The notes beneath the pieces were generated by a model. That model was given only the letters and a program-made list of their open reading frames with translations. It was not told where the DNA came from and made no database searches. The position numbers and the translations under genes were made by a program. DNA of 57,961 nucleotides, counting the filler, from Globobulimina sp. (lineage: Eukaryota): NCBI GenBank assembly GCA_003354225.1. It is 8 parts of 8 records of this genome, joined end to end, with 100 filler letters (N's around TTAATTAATTAA, not from the genome) between each part and the next. Parts side by side here need not be neighbours in the genome. Positions count along the whole stretch, not along the records: positions 50,832 to 57,961 come from PIVH01000193.1; 7 more parts are not named here. One strand, written 5' to 3'. Numbering within the stretch: the stretch's first letter is position 1; each line of letters opens with the position of its first letter. Of this stretch, positions 244 through 57,298 are shown piece after piece.

Positions 244-3200
244 GACGATGAAGGTGATGCTAAATCGGACGCGGCTGGCAACAAAGTGATTGATCCCAGT
301 AAATTGCCCAAAGATTTCGTGCAGATACAATTTGATTTTGAGTTGAAAGGCGCCTCTTTGGCTTTGTTGGATATCTTGGAAGATAAACATAAGTCGCCCA
401 TGAATATTATGGGCATTACTTTTGACGGCATATCCATGAACGTACACGTCCGGCCGATGGGCAGTTTGTTGCTTAAAATGGCGTTGCAGAGCATGGAATT
501 AGTGGATTATTACAAATCTGAGAATATGATCACACGATCGATGATTCAAAGGACGGATGTATTGGAACTACAGAAACGAAATCAAAGCAAAGCTATAAAC
601 ATGCAACAATTAGCACCGTTATTAAACCTCGAATTTGAGTTAAATCCTTTAAATAAGATCGCCGATAGTCGCATATTTCTGCGCTCACAGCCGATTACCG
701 TCGACTTGCATATCCCCGTATTCTTGCGATTGGGTCCCTTTTTTGTGCAGGAGAGGCAAGTGGATATGCATGCTTTTGAGAGAGCTGCTTTATTGCAATT
801 AGAAGCCTTACAAAACGCGTCGAGAGCAGCCTTGGACGACGCGGTGGCGTTTCATAAAACCATCGCCATTGATGCTACTTTTTATGGTCCCACCATTATG
901 CTACGAGAGGATCCCTCCAATGATAAGGGCACCAAATTAGTGGTGGATTTGGGTAAATTCAGCATTAAATCCGCCATAAAGCCCAAAAAACATCAGAAGA
1001 ATGTCGATGTGGATGGGAAACACGACGACGACGAACACGACGAAGACGCTGCTACACTCGAATTGGCTGCGAAGTTAAAAGCGTTAAAAGAACAGGCGGC
1101 GCAATCTGGCGGCAGTATGGTAGTGAACGATGATGCATTAAACACATATTATGATTGCTTTAACATTCGCGTGGAAGATATAAAAATCTATTTAGATGTC
1201 GACATTCCCCGCAATCATTTGCTAACTCCGCTCAATATGGACAGCCAGATCTATTCTTCCATCTTCCCGTCCGACCCAAAACTGCCCACAGTGGTGTTGA
1301 AAGCGGGCGTACCCAAAGTCTCCACCAAATTGGCCTCGTCTGACATCCGCAAAATGTACTTTATGATGGAAAACTTGATTGTGGACTCGTACCATGAGCT
1401 GACTGCGCAGGAGGAATTTTTCAAGAAGCGCGCCATTGAGATGAAGCAGCAAAATGTAATGGAGCATAAACAGGACGCGGAGGAAGAGGCTATTGGCGGC
1501 ATTGGCAGTGCTGCGCAGAAATTGGCGCGACAGTCTGCGAAGGACAAAGGGAAAGAATTACAGCAAGAGGCAGAGGAGGAATATTTCGATGAGAAGACCA
1601 AGTTGGAGTTGTTGCAGAAAGTGAATATATTGTTATCTGTGCAAGTGGCGGATATACAATTTTCCTTAGTCAACGATGATAATTATGGCCGAACGGGCCA
1701 ATCCATACCGATTATTGTGTCCAATATAGGCGGGACTTATTTGTATCTACAGCAACGTAAATGGGACATGACTATGGAGGCCGGTTTGGCCAAGGTATTG
1801 GTTGAAGATCATGTGTGCGATGCTTCGCAATTAGAGGAACGGCCGTATTTGATGCGAACCGGCCATGTCAAGCCACAGTTGTCAATGCACAAAACGGCGT
1901 TTAGATTGGAAGGATTACAGCAACAGCAACAAGAGAAAAAGACGGAGTTTTTCAAATTAAATTTGAATGTGATTGATGCGAAATCGCCAAAGTATGAGAA
2001 GTTGGATATGATCGTGAACCTCGCTGCTGGCGATGTGATTTTTTATTTGCGACCAGAGACTATCTACGGTTTAACGGAGGTTTTGATTAAAAATATATTG
2101 CCTTCGGTGGAGAGTACGGGTAAAGGCGGTCGCAGACAGAGTATATCCGCACAGAGCGGGATTGATTTAGTGGGTGAGGCTGCGGATAAAATGCGTCGAG
2201 AACGGGAGCGAAAGGAAAAAATGAAAGTGAAGAAGGAACAGGAAGCTGCAGATGCGTTGGCATTGATTGCTGAGGGCAGTCAGAAACGGACAGACACCGT
2301 CAAGATGAAAATTGATATCGCTTTCAGTTCGTTGCAGTTATATATCTGTGCCAAACAGTTTAATATTTGTAAGAGCTCCATTGAAGGATTTAACTTAGAT
2401 TTAACAATGTATCGCTACTCTATGGATATGACGGTGACATTGGGCAATATATTATTGACGGATGAGACTTATATTGCCGATTTGAGCTTGTTTCCAGATT
2501 ATCCATATAAAGCTATTATGGGTCATACTGCGACGCAAAATGCAGAAATGAAAGGAGTGCCAGTACCCAAATTATCGCAGCAACAGTCCTTAGTCGCTTT
2601 GCGGTTAGAAAAGGTAGATTCGATTCGTCAGCAAAAGAGAGATCCGTTGGTGAGGTTTGTATTGAATATGTACAATGCGGTGGAAATTGAGTATCCCGGT
2701 TATGCCATGAATATGGACATTGGTTTGAAGGGTATGCGGTTTACCTTTTTAAATCGTTTTGTGGATGAGATGCTGAAATGGTTAATGAATTCTGCACTGT
2801 TGAAAATACCGCAACTGATTACGGACCAATTGGAGAAGTCAGAGTTGATGGCGGGACACGAGGAGTTGCGCGAGGACAGGAGAGCTGATTTGGGCGCCAT
2901 TGTCGAAGATGCAGAGGTTGGTAACTTCAAAGAGCAGCTACAAGAGAGGAAGGAAGAAAAGGAAGCGGCGGTCTTACCTCAAATGCGCATTGTTGTGGAA
3001 AATATGGAATTAGTAATACCGAAATCATCCGTGGATCACGGGGATTACATTAAAGGTAACTTGGGCCGATTGATTGTGTGGAATGATGTGTTGGATAAAG
3101 AGGATAATACAAAGATGATCGTACAAGTGGATGATGCGACTATTGCGACCAGATTTGGTTCAGACAAACGACGACAAACTGTCCCGTTGTTTACGCAGCC

Positions 3201-6200
3201 TTCGATCAAAGTAGTGTTAGCCAATGAATTTACAGATATTAGTATTGAATTTGCGCAGATCTCTATGCAATTAGCCAAGAAGCAGTATGAGTTTTTAATG
3301 GAGTTATTATCTGGCAATTTGGCGGAAGAAGCACAAGTATCGACCCGTGTGTACCCGCAACGGCAAATTGCTATGGAAGATGTGATCAGTGAGGAACAAA
3401 AAGAACGAGCCAAAGAAGCTGCGCTGGCTGCGGGTAAGGAACAGTTAAAGAAAGAAATGAAGATTAGTTTGAAGATTAATCAGTTTTCAGCGCATTTACT
3501 CAAACAATATGGCTTTGAATTTGATCCGCTTACACTTGAAGGGAAGGACTCATTGGTTGGCTTTAACATCGATGGATTGGCATTAAACGTAGTAATCGGT
3601 CAACAGATATCGGTTCAACTGACTATGGATGGCATGAGTTTGAAAGATGTGAGTTACGATACAATACAAAATGGGGTACAGGAGGTGTATAGAGATATAA
3701 TATGTTTTAACAGTAATTTTAAAGTAGAGGATGAATCCATGACTGATGCGACTACGCCAAGGAAATCATTGCAAGCTGTGTCGGAAACTCACAGTTTATT
3801 TCCATTTCATGTGATGGTCGATGTAGATCAAGCCAGCAATGAAACGTCAGTCCAGCTGCAAATGATTGGATTACAGTTCACTTTTGGTAGTGTATTGTGG
3901 ACCTTGTTAGAGTTTGCAAACATAAATCCGTCAAAAAAAGAGAAACTACCACCCGTACCGGACGAATTAAATAATTTCCAATTATCGTTGTTAAAAGGTG
4001 TGCTATATTATTATTATTGTATTTTCTTTTACTTTCATCCGTTGCCAACATAGGTGGTCATGTGTCGCAAGTGGCTATGCGAGATAACAAAGGCAGACCC
4101 ATGTTTGCACAGAGACAAGTATTTGAAGATGAGGCAGAGGACAAGAAAGCTATGGATGAGGAGGATGATGGCAAAGAAGAGGCGAAAGACGAGGCAGAGG
4201 CTGCTATCCCAATGACGTTAACCGTAGACGTACAGATACGTGATACCATGGTGAAGTTAATAAGATATCCGAAATTAGACAGTTCGCCCGCATTGGTGTT
4301 ACAATTGGATATCATAACTGGCGTTAAAATGGATTCGGCCACGCCGTTATTTGTCAATGCAAGAATAGCACACGTCCAGGCGTACCAAGCCATCATTTCC
4401 GTTGAAGATAAGCAATTATGCATCACTGTAAAAGACGGTGTGCCCAAAATCATTGAACCGTTTGATATAAATGCCACGATCCAACAATATAAATCTGCCT
4501 TTGATGGTTTAGCTGACCGGAAATCGGACGCCAAGGGCATGAAAGGCAGTGTTGTGATGGCACCCATGGTGATGCGGTTTGGTTACTCAGATTTTGATAT
4601 TTTAAAGAGTTCATTATCTGCAGTCGCACCGCCGGTGTTAGAACAGGCTGCGGACGAAGCGGAGGATGAGAAAAAGAGAGATTTGGCTGGCATTGATGAG
4701 AGCAAATTTGATCAAGGCGCAGATACTGGATCAGAGTCAAGTTTTTCCTCGGAAGAAGAGCTCAAAATATCCAAGAAAGAGCTGAGAATGAAGAAACAAA
4801 TGGAGCTGCAAAAGAAGAAAGACGAAGAGTTGCCCGATAAGGGAGAGATTGAATTTGCAGTCAACATTGGTACGATCAGTGTGGTTTTAGTGAATGACAA
4901 GAAACAACGCAGCGAGATTCCGTTGGCGCAGTTTGTGATTAATAATGTCGGAGCAGAGATATATTCGTATCGACAGGGTCTGACTATCGGTGCACAGTTT
5001 GGACTGTATGGCAATTACTGGAATAACGAGATTGCAGAATGGGAGCCTATGATCGAGAAATGGTCGGCCAAAGCGAACATTATCATGAATGCAGATTGTA
5101 CCTATATACAATTTCTGCCTGATCGGGTATTCAATGTATCATTTACGTATTTTATGGTTCAGTCTGCTATGGCTGCCGCCGAAGTAATTGTGGGTGGCAC
5201 TGATAGTAAGCCAGAGGAACGCAAAGAAGATTTGAGATTGAAACCGCGTTTATCCCCTCGTATATCTTCAGAACATCTGGCCAATATTGCCAAGAATGTG
5301 AAGTCGCATTGTTTGAATAATGAGACTGAATTTGGTTTAAGTGTGCGATGTTGGCAAAGTGATGAATTATTCGATGACGATAAGCAAACCATAGCCGTTA
5401 TGTTGGCGCAGTTAAAGAAATCCGTCACAAATGTGATAAAAGTTGGGCCAATGGATAGTTGCGATTTTGATACGTATCCCATTGAGATTGAGCGAGCATT
5501 TCAAAGCAAAGTTGGCATTGAGATCAGTTTAAATGATGCTGACTATGAACCGTTTATTATATTAAACACCAATCAAATCAGAGAGAGAACCTATTATTTA
5601 AAAAATAAAACAGATGAAGCAAATTCGTTGATATTGCAAGGGACGCATCAATTGGTTGGTGGTGCAAAGGAGATATGCATACATTCTCCCATTCAATTTG
5701 TAAATAAAACCGAGTTAAATTTATCATTGTTTGGTAGACAGATTGATTTAGAAAGGAATGGCAGTGCCTATTGTCCAGCTCTACGGTTTATTAAAGAGCC
5801 GACATTCGATATTGTACCAGTCACCAATGAGAATGACGAGAAACAGCAATTTAACACTGTGCGAGAATTACCATTATCGCCGTACACCGATGACGCATCG
5901 TACCCAATCCATACCAGACGCACTGACGGCATTATATATTCTATGATGTTGCATACCAAAAAGATTCATGCTGGGGAACGGTTATTGTTTTCCATTGACT
6001 CCACGGTTCGAGTGGAGAACTTATTGGTGTCTGATTTGTATATTACCTTTATTCAAAATGACAAACGCGATCAAGTGATGATCAAACCCGGCGAAAGTAA
6101 GAATGCGTACAGTGCGTATAAGTCCAAATTAGGCAGTTTAGAAATGAAACATAAAGGCTTAGTGTGTCGGGATGCCAATGCCAAGCAATCCATCGAAGCC

Positions 6201-7208
6201 ATGGTGAAAAGAAGCATGAATCGATGGAGTAAGTCTATGAGTAATGTACTGGAAGAAAAGCAATCAGCACAGCAACAGGTTGGCGATAAAGACCGACAGC
6301 GATTTGATTTTATTGACCCAAAATTGCACACTCGATTGTCTGTCATTGGCGAATTAACTCAAACCGACGTGAGTGGCGCTGTCACATTAACCTTTTATGT
6401 GCCATATTGGATCTATGATTTAACGCATTTACAGCTGATTCCATCGGAAGATAAGACGCGAAAGAATGCAGTTGCTGGGCGAGGGAAAGAGAAACAGGTT
6501 TATAAGGATAAGAAGAGCGAAGAGATAGAACCAATGATGTTTAACTTCCATAGCTCCTCTTCCAGCAAAACAAAGATATCGGTCTGCGCTGAAGGTGCAT
6601 TTAGCCGTTCCTTCCCACCCGATGCAGTTGGCTCGACCGGGCGCATCAATGAGTTATATGGCACCCATCCCACCAGAAGTGACAAATTAAAATATGAATA
6701 TGAGGTCGGTGTGGATATCAATGTGGTATTAGGCCCCTTTCGAGGCTTAGTCAAAAGTATTAAGTTGGTGCCACGTATCATACTCAAAAACGAGCTGAAA
6801 TGTCCATTATTAGTGCGGCAAATTAAATCGCACTCCATTCCTGAAAAATATTGTCAAATATGCCGCATCGAACGTGGTGCGACCAAGCCATTTTGGTGGG
6901 TCATTCCAAAGGGCGATAAGGATTATAAACGTCGATATATTCAGTTCAAGAAAGAGATGGAATCCTGGCAATGGTCCTCCTTTATCCCAGTGGACGAGAC
7001 CTCCGATTGGACCATGACTATACGGCATAGAAACGCCAATATCGACCCCCAATTAATGAAAGTAAATATAACCTCGACCGGCGCTGCAATGTATGTGACC
7101 TTTAAAAAGGCAGACTATCAATACCCACCGTATCGGATTGAGAATAGGACCTTGGCCACACGCTTCAGATTCTGCCAACAGCAAATTAACTTATGGTTCT
7201 CACAGTGA
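244..7208 (+). CDS. VPS13: VPS13-family bridge-like lipid transfer protein, partial at both ends; intron 3998-4053
   Basis: ORFs 286-4053 and 4017-7208 join in frame across a 56-nt GT..AG intron (AAAG|gtgtgc...catag|GTGGT). VPS13-type motifs: HKTIAIDATFYGPTIML..LVVDLGKF, YWNNEIAEWEPMIEKW, FYVPYWIYD, PRIILKN, WQWSS, PPYRIENRT (VAB/SHR-BD repeats). The frame opens only after TAA at 241-243. The C-terminal domains are missing at the contig end. Confidence 0.9.
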
Positions 7209-39804: not shown

Positions 39805-41514
39805 AAAATGTTATCCCAATATTACAAGAAATTGATTCAGAATGTGCTAATTTGCTCCAAGAATTAGTCTTATTATGGCAAAATCCGCCGAAAGTCAAAC
39901 AACATTTTAATATAAACTTATTCCGTAAATATTTAAGCAATCACCCAAATGGAGAAATCGAGGTAAATTTGATTAAAGATGGATATCCTTTACATTTAAA
40001 AAAGAGAGATCCATCAAAATTATGCAAGAGCGTGTCAAATATGCTTGTTAATAAGAATGGTAAAAGAAGCGAAAAAGGCATATATAACTACAACACATAA
40101 ACATTTACATTATAATCTAAACTTATTATGTGTTCCCAAAAGGAACAATGAAACACATTTAATGACAGAGATTCGAGTAGCAAGACATGGTTCTTTCGCT
40201 ACCAAAAGATCGATATCCATAAATGATTTAATTGACAAAGATAAATGTAAAATGCCTACGCTTCCAAACCTTCGTAAATACATTGAATTACTTCTTAAAT
40301 ATAATTATGTCTCCCTTCGTGACCTAAAAGATGCTTTCAGACAATTGAATTTAGCGTCATCTGACGCTGATTACATACAATATTGCATCTTCGGTCTCAG
40401 TTTCAGAGATCTTCGCCAAGCATATGGTTTAGCCTCAGCAGCAGCAAACTGTCAACATTTTGCACAAATACTTATTTGGATCCTTGAAAATAAATTCTTG
40501 AATAAACATCAAAAGGACAGAATTCTTGTCCATATCGATGATTTTATTTTAGCTGCAGACAGTGAAAAAGAGGCAATTGCCCTCGCTAATAAATTTGATA
40601 CAATGTGTCATCAATTAAATATCGCTGTATCTCATGCCAAGGATGAAAATGGAATCTGTATTGGTGTGGTACATGGAACAGGTTTTAATTTAAAAACAAA
40701 ACATGTTTACATACCGGTACATAAATATAATGAATTAAAGAATGGTTTAAGTTTAATGATAAAATATCGATATGCTACAGGACGTGCACTGGAATCTATA
40801 TGCGGGAAAATGATGCATTGGTCCCAACTAAGGAAACCAGCAAAGGTTTTGTGTTATCGTTTATTGAGATTAATACATAAAAAGATTCGATCAAATCCAA
40901 AACTAAAAAATAAAATATTTTGGATACCTGATTTGATTGTAATGGATCTCAAATTTTGGTTACAGTACGCATCTTATATGCGGAAAGTGACAATGCATTC
41001 AGTGGTCCACCAGCCTTCTATAACAATTACAGGAGCAACAGATGCGAGTAATATTGGTGGTGGCTTTGTAGTGGGTTCATATTATGGTGCGTATGAATTC
41101 ATTGATGGGCCCAATTTATTTGGTATAAATCATAGACAAATGTCTATAAATTACCAGGAAGCGCATGCAATAATTACTTTGTTATATAACTATCGACACA
41201 TACTATCCGGTCGACAATTATTGCTTTATATTGACAACACATCAGTTCTTTTCAGTATCTATAAACATTGGGCTGGCAGTGAAAATCTAATGGAATATAT
41301 TCAAGAAATTGTTCTTTTAATGTGCATATATTCAATTGGTCTCCGCGTCGAATTTATACCATCATCTTTTAATGATTTAGCGGATTCACTATCTCGTTTT
41401 GATTGGAAACGTTTTTATAATACAATTGATGCATATAATTTGAAAATGAATGATTCACAAACACAAATTGAATATTATCCAACATTACGTTTGCTACGTA
41501 AATATGATTTGTAA
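39805..41514 (+). CDS. Reverse transcriptase + RNase H (pol); +1 frame break within 40000-40100
   Basis: RT motifs SLRDLKDAFRQL, AYGLASAA, VHIDDFIL; RNase H motifs TDASNIGGG, SINYQEAHAI, IDNTSV, NDLADSLSR. The N-terminal part (YLSNHPN..LIKDGYPL) lies in another frame upstream. Confidence 0.9.
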
Positions 41515-50731: not shown

Positions 50732-50831
50732 NNNNNNNNNNNNNNNNNNNNNNNNNNNNNNNNNNNNNNNNNNNNTTAATTAATTAANNNNNNNNNNNNN
50801 NNNNNNNNNNNNNNNNNNNNNNNNNNNNNNN

Positions 50832-51614
50832 GTTGAAGAATTTGCTCATTTTGCATACATTTCGGATATTGAGTTGACACAAAAGATTAACATAAATGAT
50901 AAAAAAGCATTGCAGGATTTATTAAGCAAACACAGTATGATTTTATTCAACCAACAACTGACCAAAGCAACGCAATTATCAGATTTGGCAAAAGTGTTCT
51001 CGCCACGATTACAGCTATTTGGAGACACATTGAATGAGATACAAAAGTATATCGTTGAGAATAGATCGAAAGAGCTGTTAGGCTCTGACTTGTGGCACAG
51101 CGATTTGTCATATCACCCAATACCTTCATATTGCACATTGTTGTATGCCATGGAAGTACCAAACGAATCAAATCAAGGCAACACACAATTTATAAATATG
51201 GAAAAACGTTATGACGCATTACCCGATACATTGAAAGCTTATTATTCGACATTGAAAGGTGTGCATAGAAAATATGAATCGAAAAAGAGCGAAACAATAC
51301 GCAATGATAAGGATACGACACATCCTCTGATCAGAGTACATCCCATCAAAGGCAGTAAAGTAATATTCGCAAATCCAGCATATACTCATAAAGTAATTGA
51401 TGGTGAAACTGGAAATGATTTGGAACAAAGTGGTGAAATATTAGAGGAGATATTTGATCATTGCCTGTCATCAAAGTTTGTGTTTGAACATGAATGGAAT
51501 GCGGGAGATTTATTGATTTGGGATAATATCTCATTGCTACACAAAGCCACCACACTTGCGATGGACCCCAAATTCAAAAGGGTTATGTTGCGGTGCTGCA
51601 CTCTTTGCAATTAA
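50832..51614 (+). CDS. TauD/TfdA family Fe(II)/2-oxoglutarate dioxygenase, 5' truncated
   Basis: WHSDLSY (HxD), GNTQF, HPLIRVHP, W..GDLLIWDN..LLHKA, R.M.R. The frame is open from the contig start. Confidence 0.9.
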   Translation, partial: VEEFAHFAYISDIELTQKININDKKALQDLLSKHSMILFNQQLTKATQLSDLAKVFSPRLQLFGDTLNEIQKYIVENRSKELLGSDLWHSDLSYHPIPSYCTLLYAMEVPNESNQGNTQFINMEKRYDALPDTLKAYYSTLKGVHRKYESKKSETIRNDKDTTHPLIRVHPIKGSKVIFANPAYTHKVIDGETGNDLEQSGEILEEIFDHCLSSKFVFEHEWNAGDLLIWDNISLLHKATTLAMDPKFKRVMLRCCTLCN

Positions 51615-54600
51615 TAGTATTCATTACACGAACATTTGCCATTTTCAAATACATGAACCCGATTTGGATCAGACACAATAAATTTCCTTTGCTCCAAAGC
51701 AGACACAAACTTAATAAAATTATGGCAATCTTGACATATTCTTAAATTTTTGTTTATTACAATTTGATAATCTTTGCTCGTTTTCAATAAACCAAATGAT
51801 AATGCAATTTTTTCCGAATGCCTCAACAAAACGGATTCATTGCTTTCATTGCTTTTTAACTTTCGAGTTATTAATGTTTCATCCAATTCATATCCATATC
51901 CATGCCTCAATTTATTTAATAATTCATACAATTTGTTGTCAATCTCATTCGCATTATACTCGTTATTGCCTTTATAGGCAACGCCAGCCACAAACTTATG
52001 CATTTTGCCATCAATATATATTTCAGACATTGCCTCGGGTTTTGTCCAGCCATTCGCCATTCTCTTATTCCAAATCTCTTCACTTTTCTCATATTCATTA
52101 TAATATCCATAAATATTGCACATCAAAACAGAAGCAGCGGACATCGCACTTTCATTAAAATCTCCAAATTTCACATTCATTTTCTCATAGATGGCACGCG
52201 CCATTTCCTTATTTTTATGCTTATGGCAGCCACTTATTAATGAGACCCACGCAGTGAGCTCTGATGAGGTGCTCTCATTTGTCAATATCAAAGCTTGTGC
52301 TTCTGCCAATTCACCGGCTCTCGCCAAGCAATCAATTAATGTCGATATTACTTTTGGGGAATATTTGATTTCTGCATTTTCTATCTCACTCCAAACACAT
52401 TTGGCTGCCATCACATCGCCGGAATGGCTGCACGCTCCAATCAGATGCATATACGTCTTGATATCGGCGGAGATATCTCTTCTTTTTTGCAAATCGACAA
52501 ATATTTGCATGGCTGAACTCGTGTCTCCATTCCTTGCGAATGCGTGAATCAATGCATTATAAATGCCAATATTCTTTTTATTTTCATTTGAAATGTTATC
52601 AAATATTTCCATACATTTATTTACTTCGCCACATTTGCCGTACATTTTGATTAAATTTATTTGAATGCCAATATCATTCATTATGTCCTTCTCAACTTTT
52701 ATTTTATTATAAATCTCATTTCCAACATGCAAAATAGTGCCATTTGTACACGCTTTCAACGCCGTTACATAACAACCAATCTCTGGCGATAATAATGCAT
52801 TGATTTCCGAAATATGCTCAAATAATTCGATACATTTTGAATATAAATTGCAACACCAAAACGCCTCCATCATGGCACTGATGGTAATGATATTTTTCTT
52901 TTTATTTGCTATATCTTCAAATATTTTCACTGCTTCGTTAATGTCTTGACAATGGCCGTAAAATAAAATCAGTGTGGTTTGCAACTTAATATTTGTGGAT
53001 GGCGACAACTTAATGTTGTTTGCTATTATTTGCTTTCCTTTTTCATATTGTTTTGAGTGAATACAAGCAGTGATTGCCAATAAATGGCAAATATCATCAA
53101 ACAGATCAGTGTCCATACTGTCATATAACAGCAACGCCTTTTCATTCTCGTCATTATCAATATAACTCGACAGCAGTGCATTGAAGCAAATTATATCTCG
53201 TTTGTCAGCCGCAATGCCATAGAATATATGTTCTGCACTCTTTATATCTTTGCAATTCCCGTACATTGTAATCAAACCATTCTTAATTTGCAATTGATTG
53301 TCGTTTAAACCTTGCGATATTAGCATGGAGTGAATGTCTTTCCCTTTTTCCAAATTGCACATAGCTGCACACGCTTTGATGGCTAATGTGTATAAGATGT
53401 CATCCTTGTAATTACTGGTAATATGATCATCAAATAGCAGCAATGCTTTATGTGCTAAGCTATTGTTTGTAAAAGCTTTCATCATCGAACAAACAGAGAC
53501 TGTGTCTTTCTTATAATTTGCAATCGACTCAAATACTTTTATTGCATTATTAATATCGCCACAATCGCCGTAAAAATTAATCAATGTATTTAGGATTTGG
53601 ATACAATGCAAATTATGTTTATTTAAATTGTGTTCATGGATATGTTTCCCAACTGAATAGTTTCTATTCTTTGTGCATATTTTCACTGCTAACAAATGGG
53701 GGACATTCTCATTACACAACTGATGTTTGAATGAATCATAAAGTTGCAATGCTTTATCATCAAACGAATTGTTGATATATATTTTCATCATACAGCCAAC
53801 AGAATAAATTGCATTCTCATTGCCTATATTTGCAAATATCTTATTTGCTGATGAAAGATCCGAAAAATATCCATAAAAATCAATCAATGCGTTGTGTATT
53901 GCAATGCAATTTGGATTATTTTTAATGAAAACCTCAATATTTTTATGTATTTCTTTTCCTTTTATGAGGTCTCCAGAGAGCATACAAGATTTTATTGCAA
54001 ATAAATGAGACACTTCGTCCTTTTCAGCAGTGATGGAGTCATAATAAAACAATGCGATTTCATATTGTCTGAGATGGACAAATCCTTTTATCATCGCATT
54101 AATACTTTGAATATTTTCGTGTTTCAATCCATCAAATAATAATTTCGCAGCAGAAACATCATTGCATTTAAAATAAAATTCAATCAAAGCATTTGCCGCT
54201 TTATTTGTTTTCTTATCGTTGAGATTTTTAATATTTTCTCTAATTTTATTTCCTTTTTCTAAATCACTTCGAAACCCACACGCTTTGATGGCTAATGTAT
54301 GAATAATATCATTTACTTTGATCTTATTATTTAACAATGAAACATCATATAATTCCAATGCATTCTCATATTTCTTGCCATTTATCAGACATTTCATCAA
54401 CGCATTGATTGTCGCAGTATTCTTTGCACCATTTTCTATATTTTCATACACCAATTCTGCTCCATTGGTATCGCCAAAATGGCCATAAAAATCAATCAAC
54501 GCATTGTTCAGCTGGATGGAGTCAATATTTTCGTTCTTATATTTTTCATGAATTTTCTTTCCAAGCAACAAATTATTTGTTTTTATGCACATTTTTATTC

Positions 54601-55467
54601 CCAACATATCAGTCACTGTGTTCTGTAGCGTATTGCATTTGAGATATAATTGCAACGCATTTAAGTGCTGATTGCATTGAATGAGTACTTTCATCATTGC
54701 GCTTAAACTGATTTCATCCTTTTTGGCAATGCCATTAAATACATTGGTCGCTTTTTGGTGATCCTTATAATTTCCATACGCATTAATCAGTGCATTTTGA
54801 ATGATAATATTCTCATTTTGTCCCACAAAGAAATCTTTATCAATTAAACAATGAATATATTCCAATGCATTCGCTTCTTTATTATTGCAACATTTCGATA
54901 TTAGTTTATTGATCAAATATCCTTTCATTTGTAACTGATTGCAATGGGTCTCACTTTCTGTCCATTTCAGCATTTCCACGCATTTATTTATATCCATTTT
55001 ATTGGATTCAATGCAACATTCCAGCCACAAACTGCATACATTGCAAATATTATCCTTTGAGTTTGAATGTTTGTCGATTGATTCTTGAATATCTGTCCAA
55101 ACCAATTGGATTTTGTCACTATAATTGCAATGTAACATTAGTTTCAAGAATGATATTAAAAATGATGGATTTAGCGAATTGTTGAGTTGATGGTAAATAT
55201 CAAAACCGTGCTTCATAACATTATTACGTGAGAATGAGTGTTTCTTTTGGTGCAATCTTTTAATTAATTGAGTTGGGTCGGCATTGGTTGTACAGAAATG
55301 TATGATTGATACTCTGCGGAATAATATACGATCTGTTCAGTTGCATATAAAATTAAAATGTAAAAACAATTGAATTTTCTGGAATATGATGACTGATGAC
55401 AGTACATACTGTGTTGGATCTTGTGTGCTGATGTTTGTCGTATAATTAGTGACTGCTTGCAAGACAT
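51611..55467 (-). CDS. PLS-class PPR protein with E1/E2 and DYW-type cytidine deaminase domain; intron 55333-55409
   Basis: About 8 recurring PPR triplets (NALIDFYG / AMMK / LAIKAC..GK.IH), then GACSHSG, LIDCLARAGEL, WVSLISGC, VLMCNIY, followed by HSEKIA, KNLRICQDCH and HVFENGKCSCNEYY. Exon 1 (55410-55467) splices in frame. Confidence 0.94.
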
Positions 55468-55530: not shown

Positions 55531-57298
55531 ATGGACGCGTTTATCCACAAATTAATCACGTTTGGAGGTTCTAAACCTCGTCAAGTAGCCAGAACAGTGT
55601 TTGTATTGCTATTATTTGGTTACGCAACGGGTCGTTTCTCTCGATCTGTATTCCGCCACGGCCTGAAAAGAACCTTATTCTATCTTGGCTTTCTTGCCTG
55701 GAAATCATATAAAGGCAAAACTGGATATCAAAAACAAATGACTGAGATCAAAACTGCATTCCAAGGCAGTTTATACCACCCCGCGGTCAAAAAGACGCCA
55801 ATTAACAAACAGCTCCCAACCAAATCAACCCCCACTTCCGAAATCATAGCGAAATTAAAAAAATGGAGTGCCTACGAAACAGAACTATGGAATGGAAAAA
55901 AGAGAATCTCCTCCGGTGCAGTCTACCATGGCGGCACACAATTGACCTCATTACAAAACGAGGCCTATTCATTATTTTCCATCGCGAATCCCTTACATCC
56001 CGATGTATTCCCATTTACTCGCAAATTGGAATCGGAAGTTATAAGTATGACAATCTCTTATTTTTCGGGCAATCCATACAAACAAAGAGGTTTATTGACT
56101 TGTGGTGGCACGGAGAGCATTTGTATGGCGATTCGAGCGTACAAAAATTGGGCGCGTAGAGTCAAAGGCATATACCATCCGGAATTGGTTGTGCCGCAAT
56201 CCGCACATTCTGCGTTCGGTAAAGCGTGCGAAATGTTTGAGATCAAAGTGATTGCAGTACAGCCAAACCAGACTACATTTGAAGTGGAAGTGGCTGATGT
56301 ACGAAAATGCATCACTTCCAACACAATTGCTTTAGTGGGCAGTGCGCCGCAATATGCACAAGGTGTATTGGACCCGATTGTGAGTTTAAGTAAATTAGCA
56401 TTGGAGTTTGGTATTGGATTGCATGTCGATTGTTGTTTAGGGTCGTTTTTAATGCCTACTATACAGCGAATGGGGTTAAGTTATATTATGGTATAGAAAT
56501 TTCTTGATTTGTATTGTGTTTTTGTGTGTTTTTGCAGTTATGATGTTGCTCCGTTTGATTTTCGTGTGCCGGGAGTGACGACAATCAGTGCAGATACGCA
56601 TAAATTTGGATATGCGCAAAAAGGGACTTCAGTGGTTATGTTTCGAGATAATGAGTTGCGAAGGGATGCGTATTTTGTGCATTCTGAGTCGTCCATTGGT
56701 ATTTATTGTACTCCTACCATTTCAGGTCTGTGCCATGATGGCATTGTTTTTTTTTAGTTAGTGAGGTAAAAAACTTTAGTTGAAATGATTAACTTCAAAA
56801 GGCTCTCGGAGTGGAGGGGTAATAGCAGCGGCATGGTCTGCTATGATGAGTTTAGGAGAGGAAGGATACAGAAAAGAAGCAGAGTTGATAATGGATGCAG
56901 TGAAAGTAATTCGTGATGGAATTGCGGACATTGAGGGTATCAAAGTGGCGGGGAATCCAGTCATGGCTGCGGTTGGTTTTGTATCTGTTTGTGATTTAAA
57001 TGTATATCATATATCATCTGCAATGAGTAAAAGAGGATGGACATTAAATAACTGTCAGGATCCGCCATGTACACATATTTGTGTGACGCGAGCAAATTGC
57101 ATTCAAGCAAAGAAACGCTTTGTTTCAGATTTAAGTGATTCTGTGCTGGACGTGCGTGAAAATCCGGAGGAGTATAAACAATGTGATGGTGCATTGTATG
57201 GTGTTATGGTTTCTTTACCAGATTCTGGTGCAAAAGGGGACATAATGTATGAATATTTGGATGTTATGTTAGGGTTAGTTGACGAACAAGAATCATAA
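55531..57298 (+). CDS. SGPL1: Sphingosine-1-phosphate lyase (PLP-dependent); introns 56475-56537 and about 56726-56801
   Basis: SGAVYHG, NPLHPDVFP, GGTESI, AHSAFGKA, LHVDCCLG, FDFRVPGVTTISADTHKFGY (PLP lysine), GSRSG. Confidence 0.94.

Follow-up and report, generated by a model that had tools for sequence, protein, structure and literature searches.

The stretch of DNA analysed here (the window; 57,961 nucleotides from Globobulimina sp., GCA_003354225.1, joined from parts of eight records) has a GC content of about 33% and carries genes for VPS13, a PIG-O-like protein, PLD, U-box/MYND and PRP38, together with other eukaryotic housekeeping genes. In the part taken from PIVH01000193.1, an open frame of 1214 amino acids (51611-55255, minus strand) encodes a PPR protein that ends in a DYW cytidine-deaminase domain, and the gene as a whole comprises the following features:

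55410..55467, minus strand: exon 1, opening with ATG (19 codons plus one base) and encoding the start of a basic N-terminal leader from which acidic residues are absent
55333..55409, minus strand: intron of 77 nt, GT..AG, whose removal restores the frame and across which a contig of the public run X3 joins
51611..55332, minus strand: exon 2, including the stop codon, encoding the remainder of the leader, the PPR array, E1/E2 and the DYW domain
52571..54810, minus strand: PLS array, made up of an S motif (at about residues 150-180) and seven P1-L1-S1 triplets (residues 181-895), with residues 590-895 aligning to the triplets of 9kfx
52037..52570, minus strand: P2-L2-S2 motifs and E1/E2-like helices (about residues 896-1073), placed by alignment to 9kfx, with helix pairs of pLDDT above 90 in the model
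51614..52036, minus strand: DYW cytidine-deaminase domain (about residues 1074-1214) with H1146, E1148, C1174, C1177, H1178, H1201, C1208 and C1210, and the end EYY

Gene structure and genomic setting

The upstream ATG (55467) could be linked to the PPR frame by any of 16 frame-restoring GT..AG pairs, and the pair matched by a run contig is the one with its GT at 55409 and its AG ending at 55333. This contig (record 22 of the public run X3, 1632 bases) covers 53711-55332 and then continues with 10 letters that are the reverse complement of 55410-55419, the bases with which exon 1 ends. The splice evidence thus consists of 10 letters of one contig, which shows 28 differences from the window and comes from a run of unrecorded kind. 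Given the junction letters, these differences and the unrecorded kind of run, the simplest reading is that the contig would be a spliced transcript of an allele or close copy of the gene, with an intron-less DNA copy also possible. Both the 77-nt intron and the upstream coding exon proposed in the first-pass annotation are borne out, as the junction of the two exons is present in the X3 contig and the end of exon 1 continues this contig past 55332. Parts of the gene outside the cover of the run contigs, the intron included, were given no weight as evidence. Other joints in run contigs at the locus, whose shorter side spans 21-30 letters and whose ends are non-canonical, were read as repeat or paralog artefacts. 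In a contig of run X2, 114 bases of the region 55118-55233 are skipped and replaced by 3 other letters, which removes 37 codons close to the N-terminus and keeps the frame; this may reflect a variant copy or an assembly artefact.

The gene is tightly packed between two neighbours on the opposite strand. Its 3' end shares 4 bases with a convergent frame of the TauD dioxygenase family (50874-51614, plus strand), and 63 bases separate its ATG from that of a divergent PLP-enzyme gene at 55531. The latter (55531-57298, plus strand) had been called an intron-containing S1P lyase; the introns were recognised by eye (at least two, short and of GT..AG type, near 56491-56537 and 56728-56801), while the enzyme identity has behind it only sub-threshold Pfam matches of the exons to Aminotran_5 (E 6.6e-4) and Pyridoxal_deC (E 0.004). 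By its gene content the contig is eukaryotic and nuclear, in agreement with the earlier proposal that the PPR gene is nuclear-encoded: the gene itself has an intron, and VPS13, PIG-O-like, PRP38, U-box/MYND and short-intron PLP-enzyme genes are found in the window. The short introns and close gene spacing also resemble the figures given for Reticulomyxa (introns averaging 87 bp and a median distance of 426 bp between genes; PMC13746701), a likeness that is compatible with such a host but weak.

Scanning the window for Rfam families and tRNAs gave no hits. Paired runs of 44 Ns recur about every 7.25 kb between 7216 and 50831 (14 runs, 616 N in total), a regular spacing that looks like masking rather than assembly gaps; the pair near 50732-50831 breaks a carboxylesterase-like frame. 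An open frame at 40045-41514 (plus strand) weakly resembles a reverse transcriptase, its RVT_1 match (E 1.2e-6) falling short of the Pfam cut-off, and may be a retroelement remnant, and the VPS13-like gene (286-7208, plus strand) is split over two long frames with a GC content of 41-43%, above that of the rest of the window.

PPR array, deaminase domain and leader

The 1214-residue frame matches the Pfam PPR family with an E-value of 1.3e-34 and contains about 28 PPR motifs, arranged as seven P1-L1-S1 triplets followed by P2-L2-S2, E1/E2-like helices and the DYW domain. Self-search and alignment place the starts of the triplets, each of 99-107 amino acids, at residues 181, 280, 382, 483, 585, 688 and 789 and the start of P2 at residue 896; degenerate repeats lie N-terminal to the S motif that precedes the first triplet. 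A phmmer search of the PDB gave one uninterrupted alignment of residues 590-1214 with 9kfx_A, a synthetic (P1-L1-S1)3-P2-L2-S2-E1-E2-DYW protein (E 2.4e-77), and the array also aligns to PLS9-PPR (5iww). The protein therefore has the alternating P, L and S motifs of DYW-type PLS-class PPR proteins, and the complete PLS-E-DYW architecture recognised at first pass is supported by the 9kfx_A alignment and the triplet array. For the E1-E2-like motifs the picture is mixed: Pfam E_motif gave no match to the window protein even at E<=1, although it matches three relatives (P0146, P0147 and P0149) weakly, and the E1/E2 assignment is made from the continuous alignment to the E1-E2 region of 9kfx and from the matching helices in the structural model.

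The deaminase domain is recognised over its full length by the Pfam DYW_deaminase profile (PF14432, residues 1121-1214, profile positions 1-93 of 93, E 2.8e-28), and in a sequence search of the PDB it matches OTP86 (7o4e, E 2e-26) and DYW1 (7w86, E 2.6e-23). The deaminase signature reported earlier as intact is indeed so: HSEK, CQDCH and CSC are all present, and every column of the HxE motif, the CxxC(H) motif and the second zinc site (H...CxC) is kept. In an alignment of 171 E-DYW parts, the near-full-coverage subset of 191 phmmer hits, 46 columns show conservation of 80% or more, and at 39 of these the protein carries the majority residue. Among the 39 are nine that are invariant or 99% conserved (H1146, E1148, C1174, C1177, H1178, D1196, H1201, C1208 and C1210), and the seven departures are L1007I, G1075A, H1095K, L1150I, I1192F, R1195S and D1212E. 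An AlphaFold model of residues 985-1214, computed from a 25-row alignment, has a mean pLDDT of 91.9, and its best fold matches in the PDB are 9kfx_A (E 5e-15, TMq 0.76), the DYW domain of OTP86 (TMt 0.79-0.86) and DYW1 (TMt 0.84).

Two hallmarks of the plant-type domain are altered, in that the glycine of the PG box is replaced by alanine and the final W of the terminal tripeptide by Y. The protein thus ends in EYY, and the DYW-type label does not hold for the tripeptide itself. According to the available text of PMC13386178, DYW domains from outside plants vary in both the PG box and the terminal tripeptide. The available text of PMC13324415 names RNA-contacting and interface residues in a consensus PPR-DYW protein and states that the D and W of the tripeptide stabilise the domain, alanine swaps cutting editing substantially. 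By sequence, the E and Y found here are conservative substitutions for these two residues. When the residues named in that text were mapped by hand through the 9kfx alignment, the window protein proved to keep R(13,S2), N(9,E2) and K(last,E2) as well as the serine of HSE and the leucine of KNLR, but to have H in place of R(12,E1) and W opposite R(24,E2).

Splicing yields a product of 1259 amino acids in which acidic residues first occur at position 38 and residues 1-37 carry a net charge of +6. An Arg/Ser-rich presequence with no acidic residue among its first 37 amino acids had been predicted, and our data agree as to the lack of acidic residues and the basic character of the leader. Upstream of the table-11 start, the protein is similar to the corresponding segment of full-length homologs whose Met lies further upstream.

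Relatives and origin of the gene

The closest relatives detected by word-index search were P0002 (which shares the x-E-Y-Y end and has an identity of 57% overall, rising to 67% in E-DYW) and the fragment P0003 (51% identical), along with further proteins that are 42-49% identical in E-DYW. Relatives closer than Rotaria span 42-71% identity in E-DYW; Rotaria magnacalcarata is the closest named relative at 33%, and named land plants lie at 27-33%. An exhaustive search with residues 985-1214 returned 2188 cluster representatives at E<=0.001 and 33 at E<=1e-30, and the closest representatives share the SEI-type PG box and the Y-ending tail. The cluster atlas places a rotifer cluster first for the DYW protein, with Streptophyta clusters next.

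The DYW phylogeny suggested at first pass was run on the 171 E-DYW rows (quick maximum likelihood, LG+G4, SH-aLRT support only, midpoint root for drawing), a set that holds no named Naegleria, Acrasis, Physarum or rhizarian sequences. The window protein and P0002 form a pair (support 100) within a 15-row clade (support 95) in which 14 rows end in Y and none in W, P0190 being without the usual tail. This clade is enclosed by a 30-row clade (support 98) that also takes in three named rows from the bdelloid rotifer Rotaria, and all 25 named plant rows fall outside it, so that the window protein groups near Rotaria and apart from named plants.

Since the architecture is of plant type and the named sequence relatives are mostly plants, we considered whether the contig might be plant or algal contamination, or the gene a recent transfer from a plant. 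Both the gene and its surroundings make this extremely improbable. Over the best BLASTP alignment with the full-length query, named plants are 23-26% identical (24-29% with the weakest rows, P0024 and P0025), a level that rises only to the 27-33% given above in E-DYW, and the SH-aLRT support of 98 for the 30-row clade separates the gene from all named plant rows. The gene also possesses an intron and lies among compact neighbours in DNA of low GC content. The window PRP38 is 73%, 68% and 57% identical to three full-length relatives and 86% identical to a 145-aa fragment, but at most 61% identical to the named plants and animals among the matches listed, and is no closer to plants than to animals, which argues that the contig does not derive from a plant. 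The contamination check proposed for this locus thus points away from a land plant on the evidence of both PRP38 and E-DYW.

Proposed role and known systems

Taken together, we consider it probable that this nuclear two-exon PLS-E1-E2-DYW gene of an AT-rich protist encodes a mitochondrial, site-specific C-to-U editing factor. By analogy with the DYW-type PPR proteins of plants and Naegleria, the basic composition of the N-terminal leader suggests that it would import the protein into the mitochondrion, where a specific organellar transcript would be bound as a single strand by the PPR motifs and read by the 5th and last residues of those of P and S type. The zinc-dependent DYW deaminase would then act on the cytidine that lies four nucleotides downstream of the last base bound by the PPR motifs, changing it to uridine. 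In the PPR code, the pair formed by the 5th and last residues of a motif specifies an RNA base. The reading of these residues recommended in the first-pass annotation was made by eye over 17 P and S motifs, and 10 carry canonical pairs (ND six times; NN three times, in S1-1, P1-2 and S1-2; SN and TN once each), the non-canonical pairs being NA, GE, CD, SE (twice) and IN. Under the code, these pairs predict a target rich in U, A or pyrimidines. Selection on the protein was approached through the differences between the window and the run contigs: of 34 listed differences 21 leave the protein unchanged, whereas random changes would be synonymous in 19% of cases, a count that covers the listed differences and leaves about 100 further window/run differences outside the classification.

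A protein of this build might still bind RNA after its editing activity was lost, and serve instead in transcript stabilisation, cleavage or splicing, or in aiding another deaminase. The EYY end, the change of the PG-box glycine to A and R1195S would fit such a loss. In Naegleria and Acrasis, moreover, DYW genes are far more numerous than confirmed editing sites according to the available text of PMC4202320, so other roles are possible there, and a DYW-linked ribonuclease activity is named in the title of PMC10318007. We nonetheless regard a non-editing role as unlikely, because the catalytic columns and those of both zinc sites are all kept, the same deviations are common to the 15-row clade, as expected of a working variant, and the differences between copies are mostly synonymous. 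It is also conceivable that the product's site of action is not the mitochondrion but a plastid, a kleptoplast or the cytosol, given that basic leaders are not unique to mitochondria. However, no plastid sign is at hand, which leaves the earlier idea of kleptoplast editing without support, and the non-plant DYW proteins studied to date accompany mitochondrial editing in the available texts of PMC11946409 and PMC4202320, so that we judge action elsewhere in the cell to be quite improbable. Mitochondrial site-specific editing is therefore the reading we retain.

Although speculative, it is tempting to think that the gene belongs to a foraminiferan or other retarian, and that it represents a lineage-specific DYW subfamily, with a Y-Y ending and an SEI-type PG box, that carries out an as yet unreported mitochondrial C-to-U editing in Retaria; we put this forward only tentatively and consider it rather doubtful. 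Our literature search found no report of a foraminiferal DYW protein, and the supplement of PMC13386178, which lists rhizarian species, may contain one. The available text of this 2026 survey counts 31 DYW domains in Rhizaria and others in Discoba, Alveolata, Haptista, Fungi and Metazoa, and that of PMC11946409 describes DYW-type PPR proteins together with C-to-U editing in paradinid rhizarians. With DYW proteins of Rhizaria and other protists thus already in print, the gain is incremental. Non-plant DYW factors are nevertheless patchy, and each new lineage bears on their spread by gene transfer; the window gene predicts mitochondrial C-to-U editing in its host, and the clade that it defines, at least 15 sequence clusters whose tail ends non-canonically in Y, could show what variation the deaminase tolerates.

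Compared with the PLS-E1-E2-DYW factors of land plants (9kfx; OTP86, 7o4e/7o4f; DYW1, 7w86), the window protein has the same order of motifs and length of triplet, and shares the HxE motif, the CxDCH motif, the second zinc site and the fold. It differs in its low E-DYW identity, its EYY end, the replacement of R1195 by S and the lack of a Pfam E_motif match, and its PG box reads SEI where the aligned plant-type structures (9kfx, OTP86 and DYW1) have SWIE. DYW-type PPR proteins are documented outside plants in Naegleria and Acrasis (available text of PMC4202320) and in Physarum (available text of PMC4758236). The non-plant proteins as described in the published sources, from Naegleria, Acrasis, Physarum, bdelloid rotifers, paradinids and fungi, resemble the window gene in being nuclear and in having PLS arrays and intact deaminase motifs, and like the window protein they vary in the PG box and terminal tripeptide. 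Those of Rotaria share the 30-row branch with the window clade, yet at only 33% identity in E-DYW. The window gene is thus a further non-plant example of a DYW family already known from several protist and animal lineages.
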